A stretch of 52,019 nt of DNA from a virus. Lineage: Duplodnaviria > Heunggongvirae > Uroviricota > Caudoviricetes. The stretch covers positions 1 through 52,019 of IMG/VR virus record IMGVR_UViG_2724679140_000011. The stretch is one strand, 5' to 3'. Of the stretch, positions 753 through 20,985 are shown piece after piece. The notes below the pieces were generated by a model. It saw nothing but the letters and a program-made list of their open reading frames with translations. It did not search any database and was not told the origin of the DNA. Each line of letters starts with the position of its first letter. The stretch's first letter is position 1. Both the position numbers and the translations under genes were made by a program.

Positions 753-1049
753 AAGCTGTGTGGCGAAGTTACCCCTCTTCACCAAGTATTCGGTAATAAA
801 ATAACTTGTGGTGTTCTCGTTTTTATGCCGATAAAATAAACGGTCCACTTTCAAATGGAGCGATTCATGATTTTTCTCAGAACTGAAAACGGCATCTAGA
901 AACTTGAAAACTGGGAGGAAATTATATCCAGACCAAACTTTGTCACCACTATAGACAAAGGAGTTCAACAACTTGAGGAGATAATTGGTTACTACAAATT
1001 TAAAGAAGAAATCCACTGTGGTTTAACTGGTTGCAACCAACCACATCAA

Positions 1050-1787: not shown

Positions 1788-1812
1788 TAAAAGCCCCGAA
1801 AGGGGCTTCTAT
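1788..1812. terminator. rho-independent terminator hairpin (agcccc-gaaa-ggggct)
   Basis: Perfect 6-bp stem with GAAA loop directly after the stop of 1050..1787; A/T runs on both sides. Confidence 0.45.
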
Positions 1813-1901
1813 CAAAATCATTTACGCATTATTCCGCATGCTCAAAAGAATACATGACAGATTAGGACAAAATCAAGTGCAATGTCGCAAAAAGCCTAAG
1901 T

Positions 1902-2732
1902 TTAGTTCACATCATCACCAAAACTTGTCACATTCTGAAAAGCAATATCGGCCTTACGCTCTTCCTGGTGACAAATGTCAACCAGAGAATCAAGAAACGG
2001 CTTCCAATTACGTGTCCATGTCCTGACATGTAGCTCGGGTATCCGCTTCAGTACAACTTTATATACTGTGGTAGACGGTACCGTGGAAAATCCATTTCCG
2101 CTGCAACGTTCGCAGATTTTAAACACTGGCACACCACGCTCGCTTGTGGCTTTGCGGTCCAGTACCTCTCCCTTTCCACCACAACGACACCTGGCACTTA
2201 TCACTCCCTTCCCTTTACATACATCGCAAACGACTGGTACAACTTCCGTTACCTCTGTCCATTTCTCCCAGTCTGACGGTCGAACAGCACGGGAGCGACT
2301 GGCCCAATATGGTGCTTTACCCCATGGGTATGAAACCTTACGAATGACCTGCTTACGGGGTGTTAGTCCGGTACCACTGCAACTATGGCATGTTACGCTG
2401 GTGGCCGCCGATCGGGAATACTCAGCAAAAGCAAACTGAGCCAGTACCAGCATACACCAGCCAAATTCACCACCAGCTGCTTTACGCACATTCTTCGGTG
2501 CAATTTTCATCGCGTGACGCGCCAGCGCCTGGACTGCCATCTGCTCATCAGTCTTGCTGATACCGGCCTTCCCGAAGAAGGCCGCCAGGCCAAACCGCTC
2601 ACGATTGCTGGTGGTACCAATAGCCGCCATAACATCGGTGCCTGTAAGACGTTCCGGAGAGGTTCCTTTCACATCGTCGCCGATATACATTCCCTGAGGA
2701 CTGAAGTATTTTAGCGATACCTCAAGCTTCAT
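1902..2732 (-). CDS. DnaJ-type zinc-finger protein with four CxxCxGxG repeats; possibly a phage late regulator (Q-like position)
   Basis: CHSCSGTG, CDVCKGKG, CRCGGKG, CERCSGNG in translation; last gene of the minus-strand early operon. Confidence 0.6.
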   Translation of the reverse strand: MKLEVSLKYFSPQGMYIGDDVKGTSPERLTGTDVMAAIGTTSNRERFGLAAFFGKAGISKTDEQMAVQALARHAMKIAPKNVRKAAGGEFGWCMLVLAQFAFAEYSRSAATSVTCHSCSGTGLTPRKQVIRKVSYPWGKAPYWASRSRAVRPSDWEKWTEVTEVVPVVCDVCKGKGVISARCRCGGKGEVLDRKATSERGVPVFKICERCSGNGFSTVPSTTVYKVVLKRIPELHVRTWTRNWKPFLDSLVDICHQEERKADIAFQNVTSFGDDVN

Positions 2733-3589
2733 TATTCACACTCCCCAACCAGATTAAGAATAACCGCCTCGCCATTGTCTTTCATATATTCGCCCTTTCC
2801 GCTTGCCAAAAACCAACGACACACCTCCACGGCTTCAGCCCGTGTCACCGGTTTGATGGTCATCAGCAATTTTTCAAGGTAGCGCTCGCGGTCATATACC
2901 GATTCGTGATGCTCAGAGTAACCATACTCATCGCCCTGTTCTTTAGTCGCAGTGTGGCGAACACTGTAGAGCCAGTCCCAGTAAACAAACTCACGAACTA
3001 CATCTGACAATGTATGAGGCTCTGGCAGTACATCACGATAACCATCAACATATGCACGACGCTGATCATCAATTTCATTCATACGGATACCGTCAATGCT
3101 GCCCGCTTTCTTCTCGGCTGCAGTCCAGCCCCAGAGATGATCGTCGATAAATTTCTGGGAAGACTTGATCACTCGCTCGGCTTCCACATCTTCGAGTGCT
3201 GCTTCATAGCTACCAAACATAGCCCTGACTGATGCTGCTTTTTTGATATTCTCCCTGGCGTTTCTGATTGCCTGTGCCGGGTTATCCATGCCGATGGTAC
3301 CGAAAGCAATCTGGAAAGGATCGCCACCATTCGCCAGCAGATAACGCGAATAGCGTTCCTGGGCCTCTTTTGGGGAAATTTTAATTTTCACCAGCGCGGC
3401 CTCAGCAGCATCCAGATGTGCGGGTTCGTTCAGACGGATAACCTCCAGCACCCAAAGATAAGCATCAGTCTGCTTATGCCCGGTGATTCTCCTCTGCTCG
3501 GGCAGGGGCTTGATGTTTGCGAGGGCGGAGCTGTACGCTTCCGTCGGGATGGTGAATAGTACTTTATGTTCGTTGTTATCAGTACGCAT
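2732..3589 (-). CDS. hypothetical phage protein, 285 aa
   Basis: Start overlaps the downstream gene and abuts the primase stop; operon context. Confidence 0.6.
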   Translation of the reverse strand: MRTDNNEHKVLFTIPTEAYSSALANIKPLPEQRRITGHKQTDAYLWVLEVIRLNEPAHLDAAEAALVKIKISPKEAQERYSRYLLANGGDPFQIAFGTIGMDNPAQAIRNARENIKKAASVRAMFGSYEAALEDVEAERVIKSSQKFIDDHLWGWTAAEKKAGSIDGIRMNEIDDQRRAYVDGYRDVLPEPHTLSDVVREFVYWDWLYSVRHTATKEQGDEYGYSEHHESVYDRERYLEKLLMTIKPVTRAEAVEVCRWFLASGKGEYMKDNGEAVILNLVGECE

Positions 3590-4557
3590 TACGCAGCCGC
3601 CTTTTTCTTATGGAAAACCAGCTCTCGAACCTGATCACCGTTCATGAGCATATTGTTGAAATCATCGTGATCCGGCCAGTACACGCTCACGCGCTGCAGG
3701 TCATTCTTCGCCATCAGATTGGCATGAGCACATTCGCAAGCCGCAGCCAGCCCGGTGGCGCTGTTCTCGTCACGGTCGGCAAAAATAATCAGGTGCAGAA
3801 CACCAGCTGGTACGCGGAACTTTTTCATAAAGCCGCTGTTAATGGTTGCCCAGGTGTTCACGTTATAAATCTGGTGCGCTGACAGCGCTGTTTCGATGCC
3901 TTCGGCGATACCCAGAGTGCTGGCGACAGGAAACATGCGGATAGCTACAGAACGAGCGTGATCCAGATAGTTATCTTCCTGCAGGGATTTGAGGCGCTTT
4001 GCACTGCTACCGATATCTGCTTTTTTATCACCATCAAGCAGAGTCTGGTGCAGATAGCACAACTCCCCTTTATCGTCCGTAGCAAGTGAATAAAGAGACT
4101 GGAACACACTCCCGTTGTGTCTCTGCCTGGCATTGAACCGGATCGCCTCAGCAGGAAGACTGAATATTCCACGAGAATTAAGATACGCTGCGCCGGATGT
4201 ACCACGCAGTGCCTCCAGTTTTGAAAACTTGCTCAATACCCGTTTGCGTAAGCTGGTGGCGCTGCTGGTTACCGGGATTTTAACCCGTTGGTAATCATTA
4301 CCGATCAGGCGGTCTATTTCGGTACAAATCTCGTTAAATGGCTTCGCCTGTGTCAGGGTGACAAGTTTCATACCATCGCCACTACCACATACACAGATCC
4401 ACGTTCCTGCACCGTCGCGGTCATCAATTCTGAACTTACCACGTGCACCGCATACCGGGCATTCACCCTTGAAGTGATTTTTTCCGGTTATCGGCGGCAA
4501 GCCGAAGTGCTCTAATATTTCAGGCCAACGGCCTTTCGCTGCATCTGCTGTTTTCAT
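3589..4557 (-). CDS. DNA primase, zinc-ribbon plus TOPRIM domain
   Basis: CPVCGARGKFRIDDRDGAGTWICVCGSGDG zinc ribbon; TOPRIM-like IAEGIETALS and IIFADRDENSATG; N-terminus resembles P4 alpha primase. Confidence 0.8.
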   Translation of the reverse strand: MKTADAAKGRWPEILEHFGLPPITGKNHFKGECPVCGARGKFRIDDRDGAGTWICVCGSGDGMKLVTLTQAKPFNEICTEIDRLIGNDYQRVKIPVTSSATSLRKRVLSKFSKLEALRGTSGAAYLNSRGIFSLPAEAIRFNARQRHNGSVFQSLYSLATDDKGELCYLHQTLLDGDKKADIGSSAKRLKSLQEDNYLDHARSVAIRMFPVASTLGIAEGIETALSAHQIYNVNTWATINSGFMKKFRVPAGVLHLIIFADRDENSATGLAAACECAHANLMAKNDLQRVSVYWPDHDDFNNMLMNGDQVRELVFHKKKAAA

Positions 4558-4558
4558 C

Positions 4559-6217
4559 TTACTGACTCAGACTGTTTATATTTTTCTGGAGTTGTTGCTT
4601 TGCCTGCATAATGCGCCAAGCCTCACTTCCTTCCGGTGGAACATACCGGCCACCAACAACCAGTGGCAGAGAAAGCACTTCGGATGAGTTTTTCGTCATC
4701 CTCCGTGTCCGTTCACGACCTTTAGCAAACCGGATCAGTTTGTGTCTGATGTAGTTACTTACCTCTGGGCTTATTTCCATCGGGAAACTGCTCAACCCAT
4801 CAGGCCATTCACCGAATTTCTCCCTGAAAGTGTGAGCACACCATCCATCACTGACTGGACGCCCCAGCGAAGCACGCTGGCGCTGATAAAATTTGATCTG
4901 ACTCCACCAGGACTGTTTCTCTGCCTTCGTCGACTGATGCTGATTTTTACCCAGCTTATTAAGTTTGCGGCTGGTGTCAGTATCAACGTCTTCACCTCGC
5001 AGCGGCTTGTGTCCACATTTCGGGCAAACATAGACGCCAGCTGGCTTCATGTAGTGGCATTGAGAGCATTCATGTGGCAGTTTTTCGGCCCGTTCCTCAG
5101 CTGCGCGGCGCGCGCTTTCCTCCATGCCGTCAGACTTACCGGGAAGATCGTCGTACTCGATTGAATCCGGATAACCCAGACGGTGCACGGTGCCGCTGTG
5201 ATCGAAGATAAGGCAGGACTCTTTACCCGGTGCGGTGCGCAGTCCACGCCCGAGAGCCTGTAACCAGCGAATTTCGCTTTTTGTTGGCCTGGCGTAGATG
5301 ATGCAACGAACGTCACTATCGAAGCCGGCCACCAGAACGCCCACACTAACAATGATTTTCGTTGCACCGGTTTCAAAGCGGTGAATGATGGTCTGGCGCT
5401 CATCTACCGGAGTGTCTGCGGTCATTACCTCAGCGTTAACACCTGCGAGGTTAAACTGGATTGTCAGGTAATTGGCGTGGGCTACGTTGACGCAGAAAGC
5501 GATGGTAGGTAGATCCCGACCATTCTCCAGCCAGTTCTGTACGATGTCGCCCACCAGCGTAGATCCGCACATGATTTCAGCCAGCTGTGTTTCGTTGTAA
5601 TCGCGGCCGTACTCAAGCGAAGATGTGGTTTTAACACCTTTCAGATCCGGCTTAGTTGGCGCGTAAAATTCGTATTTACTCAGATCGCCACGCTGGATTA
5701 ACTCGCCGATGGTGGTCGGCTTAATCAGTCGGTCATAGTATTTGCCCAGGAACGGAGAAAACGGAGTACCCGACAGGCCAATCACCTTTACGCCTTTGCC
5801 GCGCAGACATTCGATATCCTTCAGGATGCGTTTTTTACGCAGGTGCGCTTCGTCGATAATCAGCAGATCGATATTTTCAGGAAAAACACGACGAATAAGC
5901 GTGTCAGCGCTGGCAATCTGAATTTTCCGGTCCGGATCGTAGTTCGGGTGATCCGCCCAGATATAACCGATTTCATCTCCAGGTAAACCATACTGCACAA
6001 ACCGATTAGCCGTCTGACCAATCAGGATGGTGTACGGAACACAGAACAGAACGCGCATACCACGGCTGACAAAACCAGCAACTATGAAGGCTGCCAGACC
6101 CGTTTTACCGCTACCGGTTGGCGAGTACACCATGAAGGTGTCGTTTGCCTTCCAGTCACGGCGCAACATGTTTAGCGCACGCTCCTGTGCAAAATTCGGC
6201 GTGATTGTCAGCTGCAT
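4559..6217 (-). CDS. SF2 DEAD/DEAH-box helicase, phage replicative helicase
   Basis: Walker A SPTGSGKT, DEAH box IIDEAH, motif VI QALGRGLR, C-terminal CxxC...CxxC zinc ribbon. Confidence 0.8.
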   Translation of the reverse strand: MQLTITPNFAQERALNMLRRDWKANDTFMVYSPTGSGKTGLAAFIVAGFVSRGMRVLFCVPYTILIGQTANRFVQYGLPGDEIGYIWADHPNYDPDRKIQIASADTLIRRVFPENIDLLIIDEAHLRKKRILKDIECLRGKGVKVIGLSGTPFSPFLGKYYDRLIKPTTIGELIQRGDLSKYEFYAPTKPDLKGVKTTSSLEYGRDYNETQLAEIMCGSTLVGDIVQNWLENGRDLPTIAFCVNVAHANYLTIQFNLAGVNAEVMTADTPVDERQTIIHRFETGATKIIVSVGVLVAGFDSDVRCIIYARPTKSEIRWLQALGRGLRTAPGKESCLIFDHSGTVHRLGYPDSIEYDDLPGKSDGMEESARRAAEERAEKLPHECSQCHYMKPAGVYVCPKCGHKPLRGEDVDTDTSRKLNKLGKNQHQSTKAEKQSWWSQIKFYQRQRASLGRPVSDGWCAHTFREKFGEWPDGLSSFPMEISPEVSNYIRHKLIRFAKGRERTRRMTKNSSEVLSLPLVVGGRYVPPEGSEAWRIMQAKQQLQKNINSLSQ

Positions 6218-6328
6218 TGTGCTGCCCCCGCAGTGATGAGATAATAATTTTGTGATGTGGTTTTCATGGATTCCTCCTCACATGGCTGGCGGCCTCCCCA
6301 AAGGCTGCCAGCCCCCTTCCGAATCAAC

Positions 6329-6697
6329 TCACTTAAATTTCGTCGCACGAATAACGTCAATTCCGTTCTCGCTATATCGAAGAGGGTGCTTACCATCCCT
6401 GAGCAGGACAAAACCTGACATCCCCTCAGGTAGCTGAGCCAGCTTCACCAACGAACGGTTGCGGGGAGACTTCTTATCGACCTCAATGGCACACTGCTGG
6501 CCGTCTGATGATGTAACCAGGCAATCAATAAACCCTTTACGACCACCGCTAATGCTGATGCTGAAATTGCGTTGCAGGTGGTATCCCTGAGACTTGATTT
6601 TTTTCTGCATCACATAATCGAAAACAACTTTGTCATCGGAGCGAATGAATCGCTCTTCCATGAGAGTGATTAAATTTTGCTTCAGGTCTTCACTCAT
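6329..6697 (-). CDS. hypothetical protein, 122 aa
   Basis: ORF in early-right operon between Cro-like gene and helicase. Confidence 0.5.
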   Translation of the reverse strand: MSEDLKQNLITLMEERFIRSDDKVVFDYVMQKKIKSQGYHLQRNFSISISGGRKGFIDCLVTSSDGQQCAIEVDKKSPRNRSLVKLAQLPEGMSGFVLLRDGKHPLRYSENGIDVIRATKFK

Positions 6698-6946
6698 ACT
6701 TTTTTATCCATCTTGTACTAGCTTTCTGGTACAACCGTTTTTTCAGGGGTATCCCCCTTTAGATCGAGATCTACCTAACCTATGTACCCGTCTGTTGGAA
6801 AAGCCTGTTCCAGTGCTTCGCACTAACACACGGGCACTCCTCCCCCTCCCCTCCTCTCATTGAATTTTGTGCGCACTCTTTAACTAGTACAAAAATGCAA
6901 TGAGATTTGGGATTCAGCCACCGGACACCTTTAAGCCCGGTACCAA

Positions 6947-7234
6947 TCAGGAGCGCGATTGCGTTCCTGCCAGGGGCGGCTGAGTTGTATACCCCTGTAA
7001 AGCTCTGCCCTGATTTCTCACAAACAGGCGAAGCCTTGTGTTTGCTTCATGCCTTGCCCGGTTCTCCTTGCGGTACGAAACGGGTTCGGCCTCGAACGTC
7101 TCCTGATACACAGCTGCATAACGCTGGATAGCTTTTTGTCGTGTAGTTGGTGTCAGGCTAAGTAACTGCTGCTGAATCCAAGAGGAATCTGCTTGGCTGA
7201 AATCAGAAGGCATTCCCTCAAAACCACCGTTCAT
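6947..7234 (-). CDS. hypothetical protein, 95 aa (cII-position gene)
   Basis: Stop/start abuts the Cro-like gene; position only, no motif recognised. Confidence 0.45.
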   Translation of the reverse strand: MNGGFEGMPSDFSQADSSWIQQQLLSLTPTTRQKAIQRYAAVYQETFEAEPVSYRKENRARHEANTRLRLFVRNQGRALQGYTTQPPLAGTQSRS

Positions 7235-7462
7235 TTAGCTATCGCTACATCTGAAAACTAACTGCTCTTTGGCTATAATTGGCTTTTCGGGAAACGACTT
7301 AGAAGCCGTTTCAATCGCCAGAGCTAAGCGTGGGGAAGCATTTCGATAGCCGTACGCGATGAGATTTAAGTAACCGGAAGATGTACCCGATTTTTCAGCA
7401 AGATCTACCCATTCTTCTTTTGTTGAGGACTTACGCCATGCAAGTAGCTGGTTGTTCATCAT
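7235..7462 (-). CDS. Cro-like XRE-family HTH regulator
   Basis: HTH-like segment LAEKSGTSSGYLNLIAYGYRNASPRLALAI; divergent from CI-like repressor across an operator region. Confidence 0.6.
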   Translation of the reverse strand: MMNNQLLAWRKSSTKEEWVDLAEKSGTSSGYLNLIAYGYRNASPRLALAIETASKSFPEKPIIAKEQLVFRCSDS

Positions 7463-7569
7463 GGTCTCCTATGCAATGAAACAACTTTAGCGATTTGCTA
7501 AATACAATGCAATAATCATTTAGCGTTTTGTGTATTTACCACATTGCTAAATGATGAGAGTATCTTTAC
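7463..7569. promoter_or_regulatory. divergent promoter/operator region (OR-like) with TTAGC...GCTAA dyads
   Basis: ttagcgatttgctaaa, tttagcgttttg...cattgctaaatg between the cro-like and cI-like starts. Confidence 0.55.
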
Positions 7570-8259
7570 ATGGACATAAAAAGCATTCGTAAATCAAACC
7601 TTGAGCGGCTCATAATCGAATATCTCAAGCGAGATGGGCACACAACTAAAGCCTCATTCGCTGAACTGTGTAGGATAAGCCCTGCTCAATTGAGCCAGCT
7701 ATTGGGTCGAAATAGCCACAGAAATGTGGGTGACAAACTGGCAAGAAGGATCGAAGCGGCTATGGAGCGACCTTATGGGTGGCTCGATGGTCTACATGGA
7801 GAAAAGGACGTTAATGAAAATGAATTAGAGTATGTAGGGGCTGTCAGACCGGGGGCAGTTCCAGTGGTAGGAGAGGCTATTCTAGGGATAGACGGAATGA
7901 TAGATATGCTAGAAATCCATGCAGGCTGGTTACAGATCTATAGCGCGGATAAAGACGCCTATGGATTGAAGGTAAAAGGCGATAGCATGTGGCCTAGAAT
8001 CCAGTCCGGAGAATACGTGGTCATAGAGCCAAACACTCCTATCCACCCTGGAGATGAAGTCTTCGTCCGCACAAAGGACGGACATAACATGATAAAGATA
8101 ATGAGTAAAACTCGAGATGGTGATTTTCAATTTTCCAGCGTGAATAGCGAGCATAGGCCTATCACAGTAAGCCCGGATGAAATCGAGAAAATGCACTTTG
8201 TTTCGGCTATTGTTAAACATACCCGTTATGTTGACAATGATGAGATGCCAATCATGTAG
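7570..8259 (+). CDS. CI-like repressor (N-terminal HTH, C-terminal S24 LexA-like peptidase domain)
   Basis: HTH near N-terminus; S24 motifs VKGDSMWP and MIKIMSKTRDG; 229 aa. Confidence 0.85.
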   Translation: MDIKSIRKSNLERLIIEYLKRDGHTTKASFAELCRISPAQLSQLLGRNSHRNVGDKLARRIEAAMERPYGWLDGLHGEKDVNENELEYVGAVRPGAVPVVGEAILGIDGMIDMLEIHAGWLQIYSADKDAYGLKVKGDSMWPRIQSGEYVVIEPNTPIHPGDEVFVRTKDGHNMIKIMSKTRDGDFQFSSVNSEHRPITVSPDEIEKMHFVSAIVKHTRYVDNDEMPIM

Positions 8260-8339
8260 CCTGCCAATTATCCTCACGCAAGCCGACCTCTTGGTCGGTT
8301 TTTTTTATGGGCATCAGCATATCAAATACTCATATTTAT

Positions 8340-8410
8340 CAAAAGCATAAAGAAAAAAGCAAATAATTTAGCATTTTAGTATTGCTCATGATTTACCATT
8401 TTGCTAAATT
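8340..8410. promoter_or_regulatory. second operator-like cluster (OL/PL-like)
   Basis: tttagcattttagtattgctca and ttttgctaaa half-sites resembling the 7463-7569 dyads. Confidence 0.4.
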
Positions 8411-8735
8411 CATTTCATCGGCAACCAACGGAGCCAATGAGATGAACACAAACTCCCAACATAAACCAATTGGCCAGATATTTGATATTCACGCCAAGCT
8501 TAGATCAGCAAATTCGCATTGGTCTTATTGCCATGCTGTGCAGCCTCACGATAAAGGATTTGATTACCAATTTAATACGATATTTGCCGGTGAGATGGAG
8601 TTCGCCGTTTACGAACGCATCGAAAATTATTTTGTATTAGTTGATTTCTTCAAGTCATATGACGAGGCATGTGATGATGCTAAAAAAATCATTGATGAAC
8701 ATCCTGACATAAAAAAAATGCTCTCTACCATTTAA
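8382..8735 (+). CDS. hypothetical early-left protein (likely true start near 8442, MNTNSQ...)
   Basis: First ORF after the OL-like sites; not arginine-rich so not an obvious N analogue. Confidence 0.5.
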   Translation: MLMIYHFAKFISSATNGANEMNTNSQHKPIGQIFDIHAKLRSANSHWSYCHAVQPHDKGFDYQFNTIFAGEMEFAVYERIENYFVLVDFFKSYDEACDDAKKIIDEHPDIKKMLSTI

Positions 8736-9238
8736 CTAAGTAATTAACTCAACTAATCGTCATTAACACCTTTTCGGGTGGGGAAAAACTCACCCTGAGG
8801 AAATGAAAATGCAAAATTCACTTTTTTTAACGAGCCAATTAAAACACCACAAATGCTTTTCGGCTCTGACAATATTAATGATTTTGGAAACAGAGTTAAG
8901 AGTTGCAGGACGGAAGGTGATTCAATGCAGCCGACTATCGAACCCTGCGAGGTTGTTGTTGCTTTCGTTGATTGTGGTGGCCGCGTTCTTACACCCAGCA
9001 TCTATATCTATGTTTTTTACGGGCGATATTTTTGGTCGTAACCACCTGTTTATCAAGAGAATAAAACCCTTGCCGGACGGGTCACTAAAGAATATTTCTG
9101 ACAATCTCCATTACCAAACTTTCGCACTTAATACTGGTGAGCAAAAAGACATCCGTATTCACGGAAGAGTTGTCGCATCTTTAGCTGTGAGGCGCTTCGT
9201 ATGACTTTCATCAAAGATAAATCGGCATATAGATCAGC

Positions 9239-9532
9239 ATGCCTTTATGCGGCCTGCGGTTACGAGGTAATCGCTCGACTTTACCTAAAAAAAACATATG
9301 GACGGTAATTATGAGTATTTTAAAAAGGCAGGATATTCAGGGCGTGAATATCAAAGCAGAACAGTTATCTGGTTTATCGCAAACATTATATGAATATCAC
9401 GACAAGCTCGACAGATTTCAACTTAAAACTATATGTGCTTTGGTTTATGACCTAGCCGCTGAGATTCACGGATGGACCGAAAAGGAGGAGGAAATAGCTA
9501 TGAGTTTGGAGGAAGAACAGCGCAATGGATAA
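9239..9532 (+). CDS. hypothetical protein
   Basis: ORF in same-strand early operon; start uncertain. Confidence 0.4.
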   Translation: MPLCGLRLRGNRSTLPKKNIWTVIMSILKRQDIQGVNIKAEQLSGLSQTLYEYHDKLDRFQLKTICALVYDLAAEIHGWTEKEEEIAMSLEEEQRNG

Positions 9533-9890
9533 ATTAATAGAAATATATCGACGCCGAATACTTAAAGCCGGGTTATTACGCCACCAGCATAAAACCGGAA
9601 GCACCTGCATCATTATTAATATGCCTAAGGGGGGAATAAACACCGTCGAATTAACAGAAATACTGCTTGATGGTCTGTTGAGACGATTCGAAAAGCTGGC
9701 TCTCAGTGAATACGGGAATATTGACGGCGTAAAAGCCATCAGAGGAATTTACAGCAACGCCGTAGATGTGAATGGCAGCGGTGAGTTCCTGACAGAAAGC
9801 GGAAAGGTATTAATCGACGATCTCATTGCTGAGCTGGTCGAGTTTGCCAAGAAACAAAAATCAGTCACAGCGGAGACAAGCCATGAGTGA
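9525..9890 (+). CDS. hypothetical protein, 121 aa
   Basis: ORF overlapping neighbours by a few nt (operon-style coupling). Confidence 0.5.
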   Translation: MDKLIEIYRRRILKAGLLRHQHKTGSTCIIINMPKGGINTVELTEILLDGLLRRFEKLALSEYGNIDGVKAIRGIYSNAVDVNGSGEFLTESGKVLIDDLIAELVEFAKKQKSVTAETSHE

Positions 9891-10095
9891 TCAGACACCA
9901 ATTATCACGCACGAACCAGTAAATATCGTGCTGACAATCGAGAACGGGAAAGTAATCCACGTGCGCCCGGTTCAGAGCGGCGAGGTTACAGCATCGCTGG
10001 AGACTTTTTTATGGATGGCTGAACGCGCCGGTTACACGATCACCCCACCTGCAGGAGAGAAGGACAATGGCCCTGACAGCGATACGAATTCCTGA
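9883..10095 (+). CDS. hypothetical small protein (MSDQTPIIT...)
   Basis: ATGA start/stop overlap with upstream ORF. Confidence 0.4.
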   Translation: MSDQTPIITHEPVNIVLTIENGKVIHVRPVQSGEVTASLETFLWMAERAGYTITPPAGEKDNGPDSDTNS

Positions 10096-10318
10096 GTGGG
10101 TGCACCTGCAGGCGGTCCGTGTTCTCCGCCAGTTCAGAGCCAGACGAATTCATCCCTGTCGTATGCACGGCTCCGGAAACCTGAGTCTGAGGGTTAATCG
10201 CCGCTGGCGGCTGCTGTCCCGAGACGGCGGCCAGAACTGGGAAGTAATGAGCCATGAACGATACAGCAAAGTTAAGGACCGGAAATGAACAATAAACCTT
10301 CAAACCAAAAGGAGAGTA

Positions 10319-10900
10319 TTGATGATTAATTCAACCATTACCCCTGAACCTACATTAACAGGCATCCGTTTTGGTAATCGAATTATTGGTTATTCAACTG
10401 CGGTTCGCCAGATCGACAACGGTAACTATGACAAACGAATTCCGGACGGGCTCGATCTGATAGCTTGCATTATGGAAGGGATTGAAAGCGGCTGGTTTAT
10501 GCCGTGTATTGAAAAACAAATCATCCTATGGCGCTGGCTTGTTGTCGCCGTGTTCATTGCTGAGGAGCAGGAGAAGAACGGGACTGTCGATGTTCAGAAT
10601 GACAAGGGCGGCGTAGATACAGCCGTTGTATACACCGGAAAACCCGGTTCAATCAGCATTTATCCGTGGTCTGAGCGTTTCGCTCTCGCTAACCATATCG
10701 AGGCGGGCGCAATTGAAAAATACGGGCCTGACGTTGGCCAGCAACTGGCGCTGCGTATGTATCAGGACATGGTTGTAACTGACGAAAAATGCGGATTCAG
10801 GCTGTCAGCGATGGGCCGGGAAGGATTCAACATACTGCATGACAGCTTCATTGAACAGATTCAGAAAGAAGGTATGCCAGACATGCCGGTTATGCACTAA
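10319..10900 (+). CDS. hypothetical protein, 193 aa
   Basis: ORF preceded by ggagag SD-like sequence. Confidence 0.55.
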   Translation: MMINSTITPEPTLTGIRFGNRIIGYSTAVRQIDNGNYDKRIPDGLDLIACIMEGIESGWFMPCIEKQIILWRWLVVAVFIAEEQEKNGTVDVQNDKGGVDTAVVYTGKPGSISIYPWSERFALANHIEAGAIEKYGPDVGQQLALRMYQDMVVTDEKCGFRLSAMGREGFNILHDSFIEQIQKEGMPDMPVMH

Positions 10901-10911
10901 GGAGGACGGAA

Positions 10912-11658
10912 ATGAACACAGTAACGATCAATAACAAACAGCTTCCGGCAGTCGAATATCGCGGTCAGCGTGTTGTGACGCTGGCGATGATTGATGAAGT
11001 CCACCAGCGACCGGAAGGAACCGCAAGCGCTGCTTACCTTCGTAACAAAGAGCGTTTTGTTGAAGGAATTGACACGTATCTTATTGAATATTCAGAAAAC
11101 AACGTATTACGTCCTTTCAATGTTGATGTGCCTTTTCGCGGCCTGAGAGTATTTACGGAAACTGGGTACTTGATGCTTACTAAGCCATTCAACGATGATT
11201 TGGCCTGGAAGGTTCAGCGCGACTTAGTTAACGCCTACTTCCGTACTCGCGCACCGCTAACGGAAATCGAGATGATCGCCGCGATGGCCGCCGACGCCGT
11301 TCGTCAACAGAAGCGCCTGAATCATGTGGAAGAGCAGATCGAAACAGTCACAGAAGCGGTGGAAACCATCAAACGCGGAAATATGCGCGCCGGATATGTC
11401 GGTTATCGCCAGGTGGTCGCCAAAAGCGGAATGACTGATGCCAAGTGTCGCAATCTGGTCAATGCCTACAGCATCCCAACCGATACGCACGAATTTATGA
11501 CACCTGATGGTCTTCTTTCGCGCCGGGCTATCGTGGAGCTGGAGCCGTTCATGAAAGCATTTCATCAGATGATGTCAGAGGCAGAGCCACGCGGCACACG
11601 CTGGTATCACCCGAAGATGGGACTTTTCCAGGTGATCGGATGGGAGGATAAAGCATGA
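10912..11658 (+). CDS. ORF6N/antirepressor-like domain protein
   Basis: N-terminal RVVTLAMIDEVHQRPEGTASAAYLRNKERFVEGIDTYLI resembles the ORF6N pattern; aggagg SD upstream. Confidence 0.55.
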   Translation: MNTVTINNKQLPAVEYRGQRVVTLAMIDEVHQRPEGTASAAYLRNKERFVEGIDTYLIEYSENNVLRPFNVDVPFRGLRVFTETGYLMLTKPFNDDLAWKVQRDLVNAYFRTRAPLTEIEMIAAMAADAVRQQKRLNHVEEQIETVTEAVETIKRGNMRAGYVGYRQVVAKSGMTDAKCRNLVNAYSIPTDTHEFMTPDGLLSRRAIVELEPFMKAFHQMMSEAEPRGTRWYHPKMGLFQVIGWEDKA

Positions 11659-12224
11659 TCATCCAGTCAAAACTTATTCGCGCCGCTCTGGTGTGCGCTG
11701 CTAAAAACGACGTTCGTTATTACCTGAACGGTCTTCACATCACGCCAAAACATATTGAGGCAACCAATGGTTTCGTAGCACTGCGCATGACTCACGGCAT
11801 CCGGACGAAGAAAAACATCATTGTCCAGTTCGAAGGTGGCGTCCCGGCCAAAGCCGAAACGACAGAGCTAATTTTCAGTAAAGAGCCGATCGCTGTTCAT
11901 CGCGACCAGTTTCAGCGACGACTGTCCATTACCGGCATTAAATTGGTGGACGGTTGTTTTCCGGATTTGGAACGCATCATTCCGAAAAAGTTTGACCTCT
12001 GTACTCACCCGGTGATCCAGGCTGGTTACCTGAGTTATCCAGAGAAGATGTTTGGTCGTGAGCGTAAATTTATTCCCGTCCAGTTACGTCCCTCCGGTGA
12101 CGGGCAAGCGGTCAGAATTCAGTTTGATTCCATCATCAACTCAATGTATGGCAATCCTGAATTTGTTGTGATGCCTTGTCGTGATCATGACGATTTCAAC
12201 GTAGCTCAGGAGCATCCGGAATGA
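11655..12224 (+). CDS. hypothetical protein, 189 aa
   Basis: Overlapping start with upstream stop. Confidence 0.55.
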   Translation: MIIQSKLIRAALVCAAKNDVRYYLNGLHITPKHIEATNGFVALRMTHGIRTKKNIIVQFEGGVPAKAETTELIFSKEPIAVHRDQFQRRLSITGIKLVDGCFPDLERIIPKKFDLCTHPVIQAGYLSYPEKMFGRERKFIPVQLRPSGDGQAVRIQFDSIINSMYGNPEFVVMPCRDHDDFNVAQEHPE

Positions 12225-12445
12225 AAATCGAATACCAGGACTACGGAGCCGTAGCGAACATCGTGATCACCAGCACTGTGTTCGAATTTCGTAAACATAA
12301 CCGGGTGGTGGATGCTACGTTGCTTTGTTCGCCGGACGTCATTGCAACTCACAGTGGCGTGTTTTTCATGAAGTCGGTTTTATCCGGTAAAACCCGCGAT
12401 ATGTTGCGGGCATATAAAACAGTTCAACAGGAGGCAGGACGATGA
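12221..12445 (+). CDS. hypothetical small protein
   Basis: Translationally coupled ORF. Confidence 0.4.
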   Translation: MKIEYQDYGAVANIVITSTVFEFRKHNRVVDATLLCSPDVIATHSGVFFMKSVLSGKTRDMLRAYKTVQQEAGR

Positions 12446-13074
12446 GTAACAAAATTAAAAACCCGGTTGTGCTTATTCATAAGCGTGAAAACAGCGACAC
12501 CTACGCAGTCGCAATCACCAGCGGTAGCCAGGACTATCACGATGCCGTTCTGATGGCGACCATGGAGCCAGACATGACGGGGGATAGCATCGATACCTGG
12601 AGTAAAACCGGCTATTACATGGCTGAAGAAATCGAGCGACTGAAACAAGCACTGTCCGCTGCGGAAAATAATCTGATTGATTCCGAATGCCTCGTCGCTG
12701 AATTAAGCAAAGCAAAGGATCACGCATATGGGCTGGTCGACACATACGACTGGCAACGTCAGCGTCTCCACACAGCCGCTGAGAAAGTCATCAAATGGTG
12801 CAGACAAGAAGCTGAACACCGTACCGGCGATCCAGAGAAAGCAGAAAACTATGCGTGCGTTAAAGAACTACGCGTCGCATTAACTTTTTGCAAAAGTTCT
12901 GGAGACATCAGGAAGAAAGGTCTGACCATCACCCTGCCCGATATCACATCAAAGGCATTCTGGAGCGGCACTGGAAAAAGCGCAAAATTCCATCCGGAAA
13001 CCTATAAACGCTGGGTGAAAGAAGCTATCAAACGGGATTGTGTTATTGCCGGGATCGGCGTGGAGGTGAAATGA
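12442..13074 (+). CDS. hypothetical protein, 210 aa
   Basis: ORF with aggagg SD upstream. Confidence 0.55.
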   Translation: MSNKIKNPVVLIHKRENSDTYAVAITSGSQDYHDAVLMATMEPDMTGDSIDTWSKTGYYMAEEIERLKQALSAAENNLIDSECLVAELSKAKDHAYGLVDTYDWQRQRLHTAAEKVIKWCRQEAEHRTGDPEKAENYACVKELRVALTFCKSSGDIRKKGLTITLPDITSKAFWSGTGKSAKFHPETYKRWVKEAIKRDCVIAGIGVEVK

Positions 13075-13161
13075 TGAATTGGCCTGAAGCATTCACCGCA
13101 GTAGGAGTTGCAATAGCGGTGGCATTTATTCTGTATTCACTTTTCCGCTGGGGATAAAGGA

Positions 13162-13404
13162 ATGTTCGCTCTGATTCAAAGTGGTCAGATATACACCGAT
13201 AGTGCTGGCTACCCGATAAAAATTATTCGCTGCATAAACAACTCTGTGTTGTACAGAAGAATGGATGGGCGAACACAGTCGGTAAAAATAAACGATTTTA
13301 ATGAACTGTTTGAACGGATCGATCACCAGGAATACCGACAAATTCTGGCAGAAACAGAGCAGGAAGCTCATTTGAAAAAATTACGAGCCATGAAAAGGAA
13401 GTAA
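13162..13404 (+). CDS. hypothetical small protein
   Basis: ORF in operon upstream of xis/int. Confidence 0.45.
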   Translation: MFALIQSGQIYTDSAGYPIKIIRCINNSVLYRRMDGRTQSVKINDFNELFERIDHQEYRQILAETEQEAHLKKLRAMKRK

Positions 13405-13562
13405 AGAATGAATAAAGCGTTTGAGCTATGGGTACACCAGCGTTACGGAAATCGCTATGACCTGACACGAGATGTTGACGGTTTCTACTGTCGTGAAATT
13501 GTGAGGCGAATGTTTGAAGTGTGGTGCCACTGTCGTGGGCTGAATATTGTGTGAGGTGAACT

Positions 13563-13772
13563 GTGGGGCTGGATTGCGTACCTATATCAACCTACTGCCG
13601 CAACGCGGGAGAAACGCTTGATGCCGTTAACAAACGGATACAAAGAGGAATATGGAAAGAAGGGGTACATGTATTAAAAGTCGACGGAGTTAAAGAACGT
13701 TGGGTCGACTTAATGGAGATTACAAAATGGGCAAGAAAGAACAAGGATCATTATCTCTCCCTAGAGGAGTAA
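13563..13772 (+). CDS. excisionase-like (Xis/AlpA-type) small DNA-binding protein
   Basis: 69-aa basic protein immediately upstream of and overlapping the integrase; GTG start with gaggtg SD. Confidence 0.45.
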   Translation: MGLDCVPISTYCRNAGETLDAVNKRIQRGIWKEGVHVLKVDGVKERWVDLMEITKWARKNKDHYLSLEE

Positions 13773-14905
13773 CTATTCGCCAGCATAAAACTGGCAGCAC
13801 CCTGGTTATCACTTTTACATATAAAGGGGTTCTGTGTCGGGAGCCCCTCTCCAGAATGGAAGCAAACGCGCGCGGTGTGAAGTACGCCGAGCGCCTGCTC
13901 GGGGAGATACAAAACCAGATCGTCAGTGGCACCTTTGAATATGCGAAATATTTCCCCAACTCCAAAAAGCTGGAGCTGTTCGGGGTGGTGAAGAAAACCA
14001 AAAACATAAAGTCCTACCTGGACGAGTACCTGAAAATCTGCCAGAACCGCAACCTGTCCCCGTCGACTATAAATGGTTATGAAAAATGCCTGTCGGCACT
14101 GTCAGCTCTGCATAAACTCCACGTGTCAGAACTGACGCCAGCGGTCCTTAAAAACTGGATAGCCAGCCGGAAAACAAAGCTGAAAACGACCAGGAATAAC
14201 CTTTCGTTTCTGCGCAGCGCCATTGATGAAGCTGTTACGGATGGCCTGCTGACCATTAACCCGGTAACCCTCGTCAGCGCCAGCCGGTACCACGTGATCG
14301 ACAGCAGCCCGAGCGCCGACGATTACGAGGTTGACCCGTTCACGCCAGCGGAGACCCTTGCCATTTACCAGAGCTGCAGGTACACGGAATGGGAAAACCT
14401 GTTCCGCTTTGCTTTCAATACAGGTCTGCGGAGCTCAGAACTGTGCGCGCTGCGCTGGGCTGATCTCGACACCATCGCGAACACAGCCCACGTTCAGGCG
14501 GCCAGTGTCGTAGGGATACTTAAAGGCACCAAGACAAAAGCCGGTACCCGTAAGGTGGAGCTGAACAGTGAGGCGCTGGCGGCCCTGCAGGCGCAGAAGC
14601 AATACACCTTTATGAAAAGTGAGTTCATATTCAGCGATCCGAAAACGGGAGAACCCTGGACGAACGCCGACGCTATCCGTAAAAAAGCATGGGTGCCGAC
14701 CCTGAAAAAAGCTGGTGTGCGCTACCGTAACCCGTACCAGACGCGCCACACATTCGCCACCAGACACATTAGCCAAGGTGTAAACCTTTTCTGGCTTGCC
14801 GGGCAGATGGGGCATAAGGGGCCGGAAATGCTGTTCCGCAATTACGGTAAATACCTGGCTGAATACGACGGGAAAACCGCAATGGAAGCTGGAATGAAGA
14901 AGTGA
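13700..14905 (+). CDS. tyrosine integrase, lambda-Int type (probable start 13727)
   Basis: C-terminal catalytic region with ...RHTFATRHISQGVNLFWLAGQMGHKGPEMLFRNYGKY (R...H..R..Y). Confidence 0.85.
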   Translation: MGRLNGDYKMGKKEQGSLSLPRGVTIRQHKTGSTLVITFTYKGVLCREPLSRMEANARGVKYAERLLGEIQNQIVSGTFEYAKYFPNSKKLELFGVVKKTKNIKSYLDEYLKICQNRNLSPSTINGYEKCLSALSALHKLHVSELTPAVLKNWIASRKTKLKTTRNNLSFLRSAIDEAVTDGLLTINPVTLVSASRYHVIDSSPSADDYEVDPFTPAETLAIYQSCRYTEWENLFRFAFNTGLRSSELCALRWADLDTIANTAHVQAASVVGILKGTKTKAGTRKVELNSEALAALQAQKQYTFMKSEFIFSDPKTGEPWTNADAIRKKAWVPTLKKAGVRYRNPYQTRHTFATRHISQGVNLFWLAGQMGHKGPEMLFRNYGKYLAEYDGKTAMEAGMKK

Positions 14906-14911
14906 TTTGAA

Positions 14912-14940
14912 GAAAAAACCCGGTAAATGCCGGGTCTGTT
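14912..14940. terminator. bidirectional rho-independent terminator
   Basis: acccgg-taaatg-ccgggt hairpin with A6 upstream and T-rich downstream, between convergent int and 14947..15714. Confidence 0.5.
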
Positions 14941-14946
14941 TGATGG

Positions 14947-15714
14947 TTATTCTGTCGCGCCACCTATCGAAACATAATCATGAAATTGATCGTCAATGAG
15001 TCGGTCCTTACAGATAACATGTACAATGTGACGACAACAGTTTTCATCATCATACGCACGACCCCAGCGAACAATCTCATCTACAGACAGATCATTCGCA
15101 CTCCATGGCAAAGTACCTGAAACACCACGCGCACCTGGACCAAGTATGTCCATAAATTTCTTCGTGCGTGAATTGTAGATCCGTACCTCGGCAATTCGAA
15201 TGATGCTACTGGCCCAAAGAGCACCACCGGCAATACTTTGAATGTTATCGCAGATGAGAAACTCATGCTTTCGCGCAAGCATTTTATAGATCTCACGCGC
15301 CAAACCTGCTGATTGGAAATCCTGTGCGATAACAGCGCTTTTCACTTGCTTTCCGGTCATCATCTGACCGTTCTCTTCGATAAAATTAAAGTCGTTGAAC
15401 TGTATACGACCTATTCTTATCGTTTTGTTATCGTCTACCATATCAAGACCCAAGAGGGTATTGACCAGATCCTGCATTGGAACCTTCGAATCAAGAAGGT
15501 CACTGCCATAGTCTAAAAAAAAGTCGTCGGTGGAACATCCCAGTTGATACACATCCAAGTAGTACTGAAACTCACCAGAACTGACAATGTACTCATCAGC
15601 CCTCAGTAAGCCAGCCTCGGCAGTGAAAAAATAGAATGACTCAATAAGACGTTTTTCGCCAAATGGCGTGATGTTCAAGTCCTTGTTATATGAAGGTATT
15701 AACGCAGGAGCCAT
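14947..15714 (-). CDS. hypothetical protein, 255 aa (cargo operon gene 2)
   Basis: 12 bp downstream of the 113-aa gene; lies between prophage integrase and the ssrA att copy. Confidence 0.6.
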   Translation of the reverse strand: MAPALIPSYNKDLNITPFGEKRLIESFYFFTAEAGLLRADEYIVSSGEFQYYLDVYQLGCSTDDFFLDYGSDLLDSKVPMQDLVNTLLGLDMVDDNKTIRIGRIQFNDFNFIEENGQMMTGKQVKSAVIAQDFQSAGLAREIYKMLARKHEFLICDNIQSIAGGALWASSIIRIAEVRIYNSRTKKFMDILGPGARGVSGTLPWSANDLSVDEIVRWGRAYDDENCCRHIVHVICKDRLIDDQFHDYVSIGGATE

Positions 15715-15725
15715 TCAGCAACCTT

Positions 15726-16067
15726 TTAATGGTAGTTAATTTCCCTGTAGTTCTTCTGCATGTATAGAGCAATTGCCGCTTCAATTTTCTTCAGCAGATT
15801 ACTGCTTACATACTGAGGATACTGATCTGCTGGCTTCACAACATAGCGCAATTTTTCTTTGTTCATGGCGATCTCAGCGAACGGGATCACGTCACCGTCA
15901 CGAACTTCATTGTTCAATGTCACAATAAACAGCTGACGTGCCGGGGAGACACGATCACTCAGTCTTCTCACGAAGAACTCGTTTGCTGTGTTTGAGTCAA
16001 CAAAAGAACTGACGAGTTGAGTCCGACGCTCAATCGTCTGTATCGATCTTCTCGCTACTGTTCTCAT
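15726..16067 (-). CDS. hypothetical protein, 113 aa (cargo operon gene 1)
   Basis: gaggagac SD before ATG; preceded by two strong palindromes. Confidence 0.6.
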   Translation of the reverse strand: MRTVARRSIQTIERRTQLVSSFVDSNTANEFFVRRLSDRVSPARQLFIVTLNNEVRDGDVIPFAEIAMNKEKLRYVVKPADQYPQYVSSNLLKKIEAAIALYMQKNYREINYH

Positions 16068-16109
16068 GCTAGTCTCCTCAACACTTCACTGGCTGTGCAG
16101 TGAAGGTAC

Positions 16110-16143
16110 AAAAAGCCACTGATGATAACAGCGTCATCAGTGG
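16110..16143 (-). terminator. 10-bp-stem hairpin followed by T5 on the minus strand, in the leader of the cargo operon
   Basis: ccactgatga-taacagcg-tcatcagtgg; a second 8-bp palindrome sits at 16084-16105. Confidence 0.35.
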
Positions 16144-16401
16144 CCCTTGATGGTGATAACCGCGGTTATCTAAATAGTATGATATTACCTTACGGGTAAT
16201 TCTTCAACGATTGCTCTGAATTGAATAGTCTTGAAGTGCTATGAACAGCACAAAACCGTGCTAATCACCGCCCCAGTGGCGCCTAAATATTTCAAAATGT
16301 TGGACAGAATCAGGACGTTAGAGGTACTACGATATGCACGTAAAATGCACGTGAGGTATTTTAAATTAGAAAAATCATTAACATTCAATTGGTTAAGCAT
16401 T

Positions 16402-16437
16402 TTTCGGATACGGGTTCAACTCCCGCCAGCTCCACCA
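16402..16437 (+). repeat. tmRNA (ssrA) 3'-end fragment, attachment-site core copy
   Basis: ggttcaactcccgccagctccacca matches the E. coli ssrA 3' terminus as recalled; upstream flank is not ssrA. Confidence 0.75.
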
Positions 16438-16600: not shown

Positions 16601-16621
16601 ATTCATGAAGGAGCGGCCACA

Positions 16622-20984: not shown

Positions 20985-20985
20985 T

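Follow-up and report, generated by a model that had tools for sequence, protein, structure and literature searches.

What is the two-gene cassette that separates the integrase gene of this prophage from its attachment site, and what might it do for the element that carries it? In the initial annotation of the window, the 52,019-nt stretch of DNA analysed here, the pair had been described as unannotatable. This held insofar as nothing in Pfam, NCBIfam or PADLOC matched either protein, but both proteins belong to PHROG families whose function is unknown (phrog_3307 and phrog_2594), and folds could be assigned to them.

The insert between the integrase gene and the att arm

The cassette lies on the minus strand at 14906..16284 and comprises a terminator, a large gene, a small gene, a leader, a promoter and ~75 nt upstream of it. 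Its flanks belong to the prophage backbone and lie outside the cassette: on one side an excisionase gene (13563-13772) beside the plus-strand gene of a lambdoid tyrosine integrase (int; 13700..14905), and on the other the plus-strand att arm with a 3' fragment of ssrA, the tmRNA gene (16285..16437), which forms the prophage boundary. The ssrA 3' end, CGGATACGGGTTCAACTCCCGCCAGCTCCACCA, is located at about 16405-16437, where an Rfam search matched tmRNA only in part and below threshold, up to 16437, in agreement with the att fragment proposed previously; ARAGORN found no complete tmRNA gene within the window. The shared bidirectional terminator previously placed past int was likewise recovered as an intrinsic-terminator-like hairpin (14912..14940) that scored on both strands at 14916-14937 (minus site 14937..16; plus site 14918..35). 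On the minus strand, where the stem is followed by TTTTTTCTTC, it would end the cassette operon, and on the plus strand it lies just past int. The neighbour of the prophage is a P4-like satellite carrying Hachiman.

Comparison with related prophages lacking the insert, as had been proposed at the outset, revealed an empty site in E. coli 25-07233, whose prophage has an integrase of the same family and joins int directly to the att arm. Homology to this prophage ends at 14883, within the 3' end of int, and restarts at 16285, in the att arm, and the insert is therefore 1.38 kb long (about 14906-16284). At the same int-att site another relative carries a different gene (DUF4760), and the pair itself is found in 10 of the 133 E. 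coli genomes that have this integrase family. The cassette thus interrupts genes that are adjacent in related phages, and it possesses its own predicted promoter and terminator (consensus matches on the minus strand at 16207-16179 and 14937-14916, respectively). Taken from these sequence comparisons, the view that the region is a self-contained accessory cassette, or phage moron, between int and attP of a lambdoid prophage is strongly supported, as the initial annotation had anticipated. Like the morons of HK97/HK022-type lambdoid phages, it has a promoter and a terminator of its own, is missing from close relatives at exactly this junction, occupies sites of the same kind (int-att, the Q-holin region and tail gene clusters) and differs in base composition from the neighbouring int (GC 0.442 versus 0.526). 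Unlike those morons, it holds two genes, has an elaborate leader control, and also occurs on small plasmids and in chromosomal islets.

Other phage genomes carry the pair, in the same order, at no fewer than five distinct sites. In Enterobacter prophages it occupies the interval from Q to the holin gene, on the opposite strand; in Yersinia and other siphoviruses, the space separating the tail tube gene from the TAC/TMP genes; in Pantoea, a place within the baseplate cluster of a myovirus; and in SSU5-type phage-plasmids (SSU5) and at locus L039, a position adjoining parA. Beyond these, the pair is present on 375 plasmids, including the 9,964-bp Acinetobacter pMMD, where it stands beside OXA-24, on an integrative island together with MqsRA and RelB, and in phage-free chromosomal islets of Photorhabdus, where a chloramphenicol acetyltransferase gene adjoins it. 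Among three Photorhabdus species, identity is 92-94% in the flanks and only 68% in the pair, a divergence that, by analogy, is usual for fast-turnover toxin-antitoxin and defence loci. As judged from these loci, the cassette has travelled as a whole among numerous sites and a wide range of mobile-element types. A structural phage protein was rejected because the pair turns up in so many unrelated contexts, in some cases on the strand that does not carry the late genes, and also on a 10-kb plasmid. The expectation that the pair would be confined to prophages, whose failure had been set beforehand as grounds for giving up the cargo reading, did not hold, given the plasmids and the Photorhabdus islets. 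Because the non-prophage sites are themselves other mobile or variable loci, we now read the pair as cargo of mobile elements in general and no longer of phages only; for the same reason, these sites give no pointer to a housekeeping role.

The two genes and their products

The two minus-strand open reading frames reported earlier are present at 14947..15714 (large gene, 255 aa) and 15726..16067 (small gene, 113 aa), and both are real genes, since each has ~30 homologue clusters with strongly conserved columns. The small gene is the first of the operon and is preceded by a Shine-Dalgarno sequence, GAGGAG (16074..16079, minus strand), of which GGAG is conserved in the leader alignment. The intergenic spacer, previously given as 12 bp, measures 11 nt (15715..15725, minus strand) and bears a Shine-Dalgarno-like AAGG ahead of the ATG of the large gene. 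At all homologous loci this spacer is 10-20 nt long, and translational coupling of the two genes is likely from the sequence. The small gene was found directly upstream of the large gene at 33/33 loci examined, the pairing being kept even where the large-protein homologues are only 24-33% identical, and the identities of the small and large proteins are correlated across loci (r = 0.89). The 113-aa protein is the obligate partner of the 255-aa protein. Two independent frameshifts disrupt the large gene beside an intact small gene, one in the PhiR12 phages (at a T8 run, region 15511-15518 of the window) and one in Xenorhabdus indica; they could reflect a cost or the dispensability of the large gene, or alternatively sequencing errors or neutral decay.

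The large protein is acidic (pI 4.8), and its predicted structure displays the mixed alpha/beta core of the GNAT superfamily together with an N-terminal beta-meander extension. The acetyl-CoA pyrophosphate loop between beta4 and alpha3 (motif A, Q/R-x-x-G-x-G/A) is represented by Q134-S-A-G137-L-A139, which reads R-G-A-G-L-A in most close homologues; G137 and L138 are invariant in the alignment of these homologues, and the motif A glycine is no longer conserved once the family is aligned at its widest. The residues that stay invariant throughout the broad family are Q123, Y143, D156, Q159, W167 and W204, with W167 apparently standing, as read from the widest alignment, where the catalytic Tyr of motif B usually sits. 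Curated GNAT models in Pfam and NCBIfam did not match the large protein, and Acetyltransf_1 gave weak matches in only 3/40 family members (best E 0.007). The family profile nevertheless picked up, at E 1e-5 to 1e-4, GNAT domains (Pfam Acetyltransf_1) in unrelated proteins. A PDB sequence search with the family profiles gave no significant match, and the best PDB sequence match of the large protein was AAC(2'), at E about 0.09. Its structural neighbours include the GNAT toxins AtaT, TacT and 7byy, as well as AAC(2'), AAC(6'), MccE and streptothricin acetyltransferases. According to this structural model, the 255-aa product has the fold of a GNAT acyl-CoA N-acyltransferase with a plausible acetyl-CoA loop. 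A Cys3His zinc site (C60, C155, C227 and H229) was also considered and rejected, its residues being invariant in close homologues and their conservation lost in the broader family.

The small protein is basic (pI 9.8, rising to 11.9 for residues 1-45). Its predicted fold, a beta-meander with a long C-terminal helix, appears partly GNAT-like and lacks the acetyl-CoA loop motif, so that in the model the protein looks like half a GNAT. Pfam gave zero matches at E <= 1, the YjhX family included, and a fold search of BFVD with this protein gave no significant match. The possibility that it arose by duplication within the large protein was dismissed at an hhalign probability of 0.06%.

Promoter, palindromes and leader

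A single promoter-like site was identified within 14700-16700, a sigma-70-like consensus match on the minus strand (16179..16207) with -35 TTGAAG and -10 TATCAT separated by 17 nt. Its spacer contains the palindrome TTACC-N5-GGTAA (16185-16199), which occurs in the window once as a perfect match and 8 times with one mismatch (1.15 expected). Control of the cassette by the prophage repressor was therefore considered; the OR operators of this repressor (TTAGC-N5-GCTAA) are similar to, but distinct from, the cassette palindrome. Among homologous cassettes the promoter position is conserved and the spacer palindromes are clade-specific.

Palindromes had already been noticed in the leader, but there are three of them rather than two (16155-16170, 16115-16144 and 16084-16105), with that of the promoter spacer as a fourth. 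The first leader hairpin is a perfect palindrome, GATAACCG / CGGTTATC (16155..16170), at about +2 to +17 of the predicted transcript, and is a candidate operator. Its motif, GATAAC-N4-GTTATC, is unique in the 52-kb window, differs from the repressor operators and is conserved in Atlantibacter, Enterobacter, Leclercia and MAG cassettes. The second (16110..16144, minus strand), between the promoter and the first gene, is terminator-like and a putative attenuator, with a perfect 11-bp stem (GCCACTGATGA / TCATCAGTGGC) followed by UUUUU. The third, CTTCACTG-N6-CAGTGAAG (16084..16105, minus strand), lies just upstream of the Shine-Dalgarno sequence of the small gene.

The leader folded better than 200/200 shuffles (z = -4.0), and a hairpin with a T-run recurs at the place of the second hairpin in 7/8 distinct Enterobacterales leader types, with differing stem sequences. 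Cassettes as distant as those of Photorhabdus, Xenorhabdus and Acinetobacter still show palindromes in the promoter and at +1, their sequences differing by clade; the cassettes of these three genera lack the terminator hairpin and carry extra DNA palindromes instead. A second promoter past the leader terminator was rejected, as the 47 nt to the ATG in the window hold no acceptable hexamers. No Rfam family matched the leader and no tandem repeats were found in it, and a ToxI-like RNA was rejected on both counts; of the tandem-repeat RNA and terminator of ToxIN-like type III toxin-antitoxin systems, the terminator-like hairpin alone is present. Because the predicted fold of the small protein contains neither a ribbon-helix-helix nor a helix-turn-helix, the case for its binding DNA comes from its charge and the palindromes.

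Possible functions of the pair

The explanation that we favour, and hold tentatively, is that the cassette encodes a toxin-antitoxin-like or exclusion module that regulates its own expression and acts through an acetyltransferase. A toxin-antitoxin or abortive-infection role, as had been proposed for the pair, is what we infer from the GNAT fold shared with TacT and AtaT, the promoter palindromes, the presence on small plasmids, the parA neighbour and the frameshifts in the large gene. In such a module, the operon would be expressed from the resident element, and the small basic protein, either by itself or in complex with the enzyme, would bind the palindromes in and just past the promoter and so autoregulate the operon, the leader terminator keeping read-through low. 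The small protein would also bind the acidic acetyltransferase and either hold it inactive or set its specificity. Phage infection or loss of the element would upset this balance, and the enzyme would use acetyl-CoA to acylate an essential component of the cell or phage, most likely in translation, as GNAT toxins do. The ensuing growth stop would exclude the incoming phage or kill cells that had lost the element.

GNAT toxin systems arrest growth by acetylating aminoacyl-tRNA and are neutralised by their partner. The present pair resembles these type II systems (TacAT, AtaRT, ItaRT and KacAT) in being bicistronic with the small gene first, in residing on prophages and plasmids and in having promoter palindromes that suggest autoregulation. 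The differences are also considerable. The partner, basic and apparently partly GNAT-like, is not the DUF1778 ribbon-helix-helix antitoxin of TacAT, AtaRT and KacAT, and the large protein is not a toxin of ~160-180 aa recognised by GNAT models: GNAT toxins are basic, tRNA-binding proteins of about 175 aa, in contrast to the acidic 255-aa enzyme here, with its N-terminal beta-meander and no Pfam GNAT match. The leader terminator, and an invariant Trp that appears to occupy the position expected for the catalytic Tyr, further set the pair apart. A search with PADLOC-DB v2.0.0 matched neither protein to any family at E <= 1, the same search returning the neighbouring HamA at E = 0 and HamB at E = 1e-135, and no published study of the pair was found by accession, PHROG id, phage name or topic. 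By these sequence searches, the pair belongs to no known toxin-antitoxin or defence family. The partner has no recognisable antitoxin fold, which speaks against such membership. A bolder proposal, which we regard as doubtful, is that the pair represents the first member of a class of immunity or addiction systems of mobile elements that has yet to be described, in which a GNAT acyltransferase and a separately encoded, basic half-GNAT partner would together make up a split pseudo-dimeric enzyme, the partner would double as DNA-binding autoregulator, a leader attenuator would gate expression, and the target would be new to toxin-antitoxin and defence effectors.

Most GNATs are harmless modifying enzymes, and the two proteins may together form a non-toxic accessory acetyltransferase, a reading that we consider unlikely but worth serious weight. 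The putative half-GNAT partner suits a split enzyme of the kind represented by two-domain pseudo-dimeric GNATs (MshD, Eis, FemX-type, and the N-terminal plus catalytic domains of HAT1), in which one half is catalytically dead, although here the putative halves are separate polypeptides from adjacent genes, have no mutual sequence homology and are only presumed to associate. Such an enzyme would modify a small molecule or host protein for the benefit of the carrier. An aminoglycoside or a peptide-nucleotide antibiotic might be detoxified in this way, for example, or a receptor precursor altered (lysogenic or plasmid conversion). The antibiotic acetyltransferases and MccE among the structural neighbours, with AAC(2') as the best PDB match, point the same way, as do the chloramphenicol acetyltransferase gene and OXA-24 next to the Photorhabdus and pMMD pairs. 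A benign enzyme would, however, have no need of multiple promoter operators and a leader terminator, and the basic charge of the partner would be left unexplained; the parA and MqsRA/RelB neighbourhood is typical of addiction and defence genes, and no NCBIfam resistance family showed similarity.

The polarity of a toxin-antitoxin pair could also be reversed, the small basic protein being the toxin (for instance one that binds nucleic acid or an enzyme) and the GNAT neutralising it by binding or acetylation, as in TopAI (YjhX)-YjhQ of E. coli or with enzymatic type VII antitoxins. A small basic and a large acidic protein conform to the usual toxin/antitoxin charge pattern, and yjhX-yjhQ likewise places a small basic protein upstream of a GNAT-family protein in one operon, an order and sizes that we take to resemble those of the present pair. 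Neither protein, however, matches those families in Pfam, and the two frameshifted large genes with intact small genes disfavour this arrangement, because an unopposed toxin would be lethal or selected against; we consider it improbable. Even less credence is given to a counter-defence pair whose acetyltransferase would inactivate a host immune protein and help the element to establish. AcrVA5, which acetylates Cas12a, is a precedent for anti-CRISPR proteins of GNAT fold, and the phages, phage-plasmids and mobilizable plasmids that carry the pair all face host defences; set against this are the autonomous and apparently autoregulated sigma-70 promoter (predicted), the late-gene or att-proximal moron sites in place of early or leading regions, the persistence in chromosomal islets without phage, and the need for an obligate partner, unlike the single-protein anti-defence enzymes known. 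Least probable of all, and very unlikely, is that the short leader transcript, predicted to span about 60 nt from near 16172 at the promoter to near 16110 at the conserved terminator, has a function of its own, as a regulatory sRNA or as an antitoxin-like RNA with type III-like read-through setting the RNA:protein ratio. The leader fold and the strong hairpin and U-run, recurrent before the first gene despite differing stems, would accord with this, but the tandem repeats of ToxI-type antitoxin RNAs and any Rfam match are lacking, and the element is not family-wide because the Photorhabdus, Xenorhabdus and Acinetobacter versions have no terminator hairpin.

The int-att junction of this ssrA-integrating phage family emerges as a cargo hotspot that may be empty or hold the GNAT pair or DUF4760, and it adjoins a hotspot for P4-like satellites with Hachiman. 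The cassette is already widespread, on clinically relevant elements (SSU5-type phage-plasmids of Klebsiella, E. coli and Enterobacter, and Acinetobacter baumannii plasmids carrying OXA-24) and in gut E. coli prophages, and it could thus influence how phage therapy turns out, how well plasmids persist and how prophages compete. A split GNAT whose half-GNAT subunit is obligate would be structurally interesting even if the enzyme were benign. If the pair is a toxin-antitoxin-like or exclusion module, an acetyltransferase-based system with an unprecedented partner would join the defence and addiction repertoire of mobile elements.

The cassette and its insertion site

Two minus-strand open reading frames, a large gene encoding 255 aa (14947..15714) and a small gene encoding 113 aa (15726..16067), were located as described in the initial annotation, although the gap between them measured 11 nt rather than 12 bp; AAGG precedes the ATG of the large gene. 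To the left of the pair, the plus strand carries an excisionase gene (13563-13772) and a lambdoid tyrosine integrase gene, int (13700-14905), and the terminator-like hairpin after int (14916-14937) scored on both strands, as anticipated for a shared bidirectional terminator. The expected tmRNA attachment fragment was recovered as an ssrA 3' end at about 16405-16437, which is a partial tmRNA match only, with no tmRNA gene found by ARAGORN, and a P4-type integrase gene (16622-17821) directly follows it. The window derives from E. coli and is 100% identical to the mouse-gut strains M8, RSHH22 and SK6988 and to two IGC strains.

Comparison with related prophages bore out the assignment of the pair as int-att cargo. 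Of 5426 complete E. coli genomes, 133 have the integrase family but only 10 have the pair. In a related prophage of strain 25-07233 the site is empty and the att arm follows int directly. Homology with the window ends at 14883 and restarts at 16285, delimiting a 1.38-kb insert at the cargo site (14906-16284). The same site in O103-type STEC prophages, whose integrase is 92% identical, holds a single 302-aa DUF4760 gene (4323-5231 in the locus from E. coli E2865, L037, NZ_AP018808.1) and not the GNAT pair. The cassette has its own terminator-like hairpin, a GC content of 0.44 versus 0.53 for int, and the sole sigma-70-like promoter of the region (minus strand, consensus match; -35 at 16207-16202, -10 at 16184-16179). 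Judged from its sequence, it is an autonomous inserted unit fitting the definition of a phage moron.

The island to the right of the ssrA fragment (16622-28547) is a P4-like satellite carrying a 152-aa ORF without a family match (17851-18309), a complete Hachiman system (HamB, 18402-20984; HamA, 20986-21927), Psu (22627-23181), a Psu/delta-like gene (23178-23963), isrK and C4-type RNAs (25176-25409) and an alpha-type primase-helicase (26163-28547). Since lambdoid int-att cargo and P4 int-psu cargo lie on either side of ssrA, two hotspots stand back to back. Immediately before the start of the P4-type integrase gene, dense overlapping inverted repeats on GGTATAC/GTATACC (16547-16602) may form an integrase or regulator binding array. 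Past the satellite, the regions 29382-32416, 35565-36881 and 45339-47078 contain AIDA-type (ypjA-like) autotransporter fragments, a third tyrosine integrase and a ShlB/FhaC-type two-partner-secretion transporter, so that several islands together make up the ssrA locus of this strain. The STnc100 sRNA family is matched at full length (96 bits; 16-224, minus strand) in the late or lysis-proximal region of the prophage. The early region encodes a ParE family toxin-like protein (about 10067-10288; 15168-15389 in L001, the M8 locus) with no obvious adjacent antitoxin in the M8 annotation; the same gene also occurs in a related prophage without the cassette.

The two proteins and their pairing

In line with the initial failure to recognize a motif, neither protein matched Pfam, NCBIfam or PADLOC, and the pair fell in PHROGs families without assigned function (phrog_3307 and phrog_2594). 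The AlphaFold2 model of the large protein (pLDDT 77, pTM 0.76) predicts a GNAT-fold acyltransferase. Its Q134-S-A-G137-L-A139 stretch fits GNAT motif A, the weakest matches of the large-family profile land on Pfam Acetyltransf_1 domains in unrelated proteins, and weak GNAT sequence matches came from a few family members and from AAC(2') in the PDB. Across the broad family, Q123, Y143, D156, Q159, W167 and W204 are invariant and the cysteines are not conserved; in our alignment reading, an invariant Trp appears to occupy the motif B position usual for the catalytic Tyr. The large protein is acidic (pI 4.8) and the small one basic (pI 9.8 overall, 11.9 for residues 1-45). The small-protein model (pLDDT 82) suggests a partial GNAT-like fold, with a beta-meander and a long C-terminal helix; the acetyl-CoA loop motif is absent, and the two protein sequences show no relationship.

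About 30 homologue clusters per protein were found among 5.8 billion clusters, all from Enterobacterales at the search sensitivity used, with mean column identities of 69% and 63%. Searched with a profile, a set of 1.84 billion representative proteins yielded only 56 relatives of the large protein. In all 33 fetched loci the small gene directly precedes the large one, and this order is kept in the remote relatives L038, L039, SSU5, pMMD and pJ9-3, where the large protein is 24-33% identical and the small partners match the small-protein profile with E values of 1e-14 to 1e-23. From locus to locus, the identity of one protein tracks that of the other (r = 0.89). These comparisons indicate that both genes are genuine and obligately paired.

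In two independent cases, the large gene is frameshifted while the small gene is intact. A T8 run of the coding strand (A8 on the plus strand; window 15511-15518) has lost 1 nt in each of the five PhiR12 phage records, which shifts the frame at about codon 67, and the Xenorhabdus indica frameshift is also a 1-nt deletion; an otherwise similar allele is intact in NCTC9112. The PhiR12 frameshift could reflect sequencing error, slippage or counter-selection in lytic propagation.

Promoter and leader architecture

Read along the minus strand from the -35 hexamer towards the ATG, the leader contains the spacer palindrome TTACC-N5-GGTAA between -35 and -10 (16185-16199), the perfect palindrome GATAACCG-CGGTTATC at about +2, after the -10 (16155-16170), a hairpin with a perfect 11-bp stem and UUUUU after it (16144-16110), a third hairpin (16105-16084) and the Shine-Dalgarno sequence GAGGAG before the small gene's ATG. 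The predicted fold of the leader RNA has an energy of -39 kcal/mol (z = -4.0), and none of 200 shuffles folded as well.

A hairpin and T-run at the same position, with stems of differing sequence, recurred in seven of eight distinct Enterobacterales leader types. GATAAC-N4-GTTATC is shared by the Atlantibacter, Enterobacter, Leclercia and MAG cassettes, different palindromes occupy the promoter spacer in Yersinia and Pantoea, Xenorhabdus carries ATTACCTTAAGGTAAT together with TTATC-N5-GATAA, TATCAC-N5-GTGATA is present two or three times in Photorhabdus, and pMMD has a 9-bp inverted repeat. That the palindromes are specific to each clade yet keep a fixed position speaks for a cassette-encoded regulator, and elimination and charge point to the small protein.

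The +1 palindrome occurs once in the 52-kb window and differs from the prophage repressor operators, TTAGC-N5-GCTAA. Operators of the latter type in the immunity region (7464-7569; e.g. 7486-7502, with a hybrid site at 7536-7550) resemble, without exactly matching, the cassette spacer palindrome. One-mismatch matches to TTACC-N5-GGTAA numbered 8 in the window versus 1.15 expected, and cross-talk between the prophage repressor and the cassette promoter may occur.

Distribution and possible function

The pair lies between the antiterminator Q and holin genes, on the opposite strand, in Enterobacter lambdoid prophages, between the tail tube and chaperone/tape-measure genes in Yersinia, Xenorhabdus and other siphoviruses, within baseplate genes in a Pantoea myovirus, directly upstream of parA in SSU5 and L039, and alongside MqsRA and RelB in an integrative island. 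Occurrence outside prophages, named initially as a refuting observation, was found: PLSDB contained 375 plasmid carriers (Klebsiella 114, Acinetobacter 112, Escherichia 83, Enterobacter 44), including pMMD, a 9,964-bp mobilizable A. baumannii plasmid with OXA-24, and three Photorhabdus species have the pair on the chromosome, in an islet bounded by btuR/SDR/cat and sohB, where the flanks are 92-94% identical and the pair only 68%. As all these non-prophage sites are likewise mobile or fast-turnover loci, the result broadens the cargo reading and does not overturn it. In the Photorhabdus islets (L023, L024 and L025), the pair is directly preceded by a chloramphenicol acetyltransferase (CAT family) gene (~4560-5390 in L024), and L024 retains a phage tail-fibre remnant downstream.

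At the level of sequence and predicted structure, a GNAT protein and its partner are tightly paired in an autonomous, mobile cassette under complex cis-control. We tentatively read it as an autoregulated toxin-antitoxin-like or phage-exclusion module, a possibility that falls somewhat short of even. The small protein would repress the cassette promoter and restrain or direct the acetyltransferase, which would acylate an essential target once the balance is disturbed. This reading is favored by the structural kinship of the large protein with GNAT toxins, the operator architecture, the locations (moron sites, next to parA, on small plasmids, among toxin-antitoxin genes), the rapid turnover of the pair at the fixed Photorhabdus locus and the two large-gene frameshifts. 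GNAT/RHH type II systems would be closest in working, but the cassette has neither the DUF1778 partner nor the GNAT model match of TacAT/AtaRT-type systems, and it falls outside TopAI-YjhQ, ToxIN-type systems and the systems covered by PADLOC.

Against the toxin-antitoxin-like reading, the pair matches no known toxin-antitoxin or defence family, the predicted small partner lacks a classical antitoxin fold, the large enzyme is acidic and far bigger than GNAT toxins, and an invariant Trp appears to stand at the usual motif B place of the catalytic Tyr. Among the rival readings, a benign split acetyltransferase is less probable than this module. A reversed polarity, with the small protein as the toxin, seems unlikely. 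A counter-defence enzyme is more doubtful still, and a leader-RNA-centred, type III-like system is highly improbable. A literature search found no paper on this gene pair, whose family combines a GNAT with an unusual partner protein and occurs widely on mobile elements of clinical relevance.
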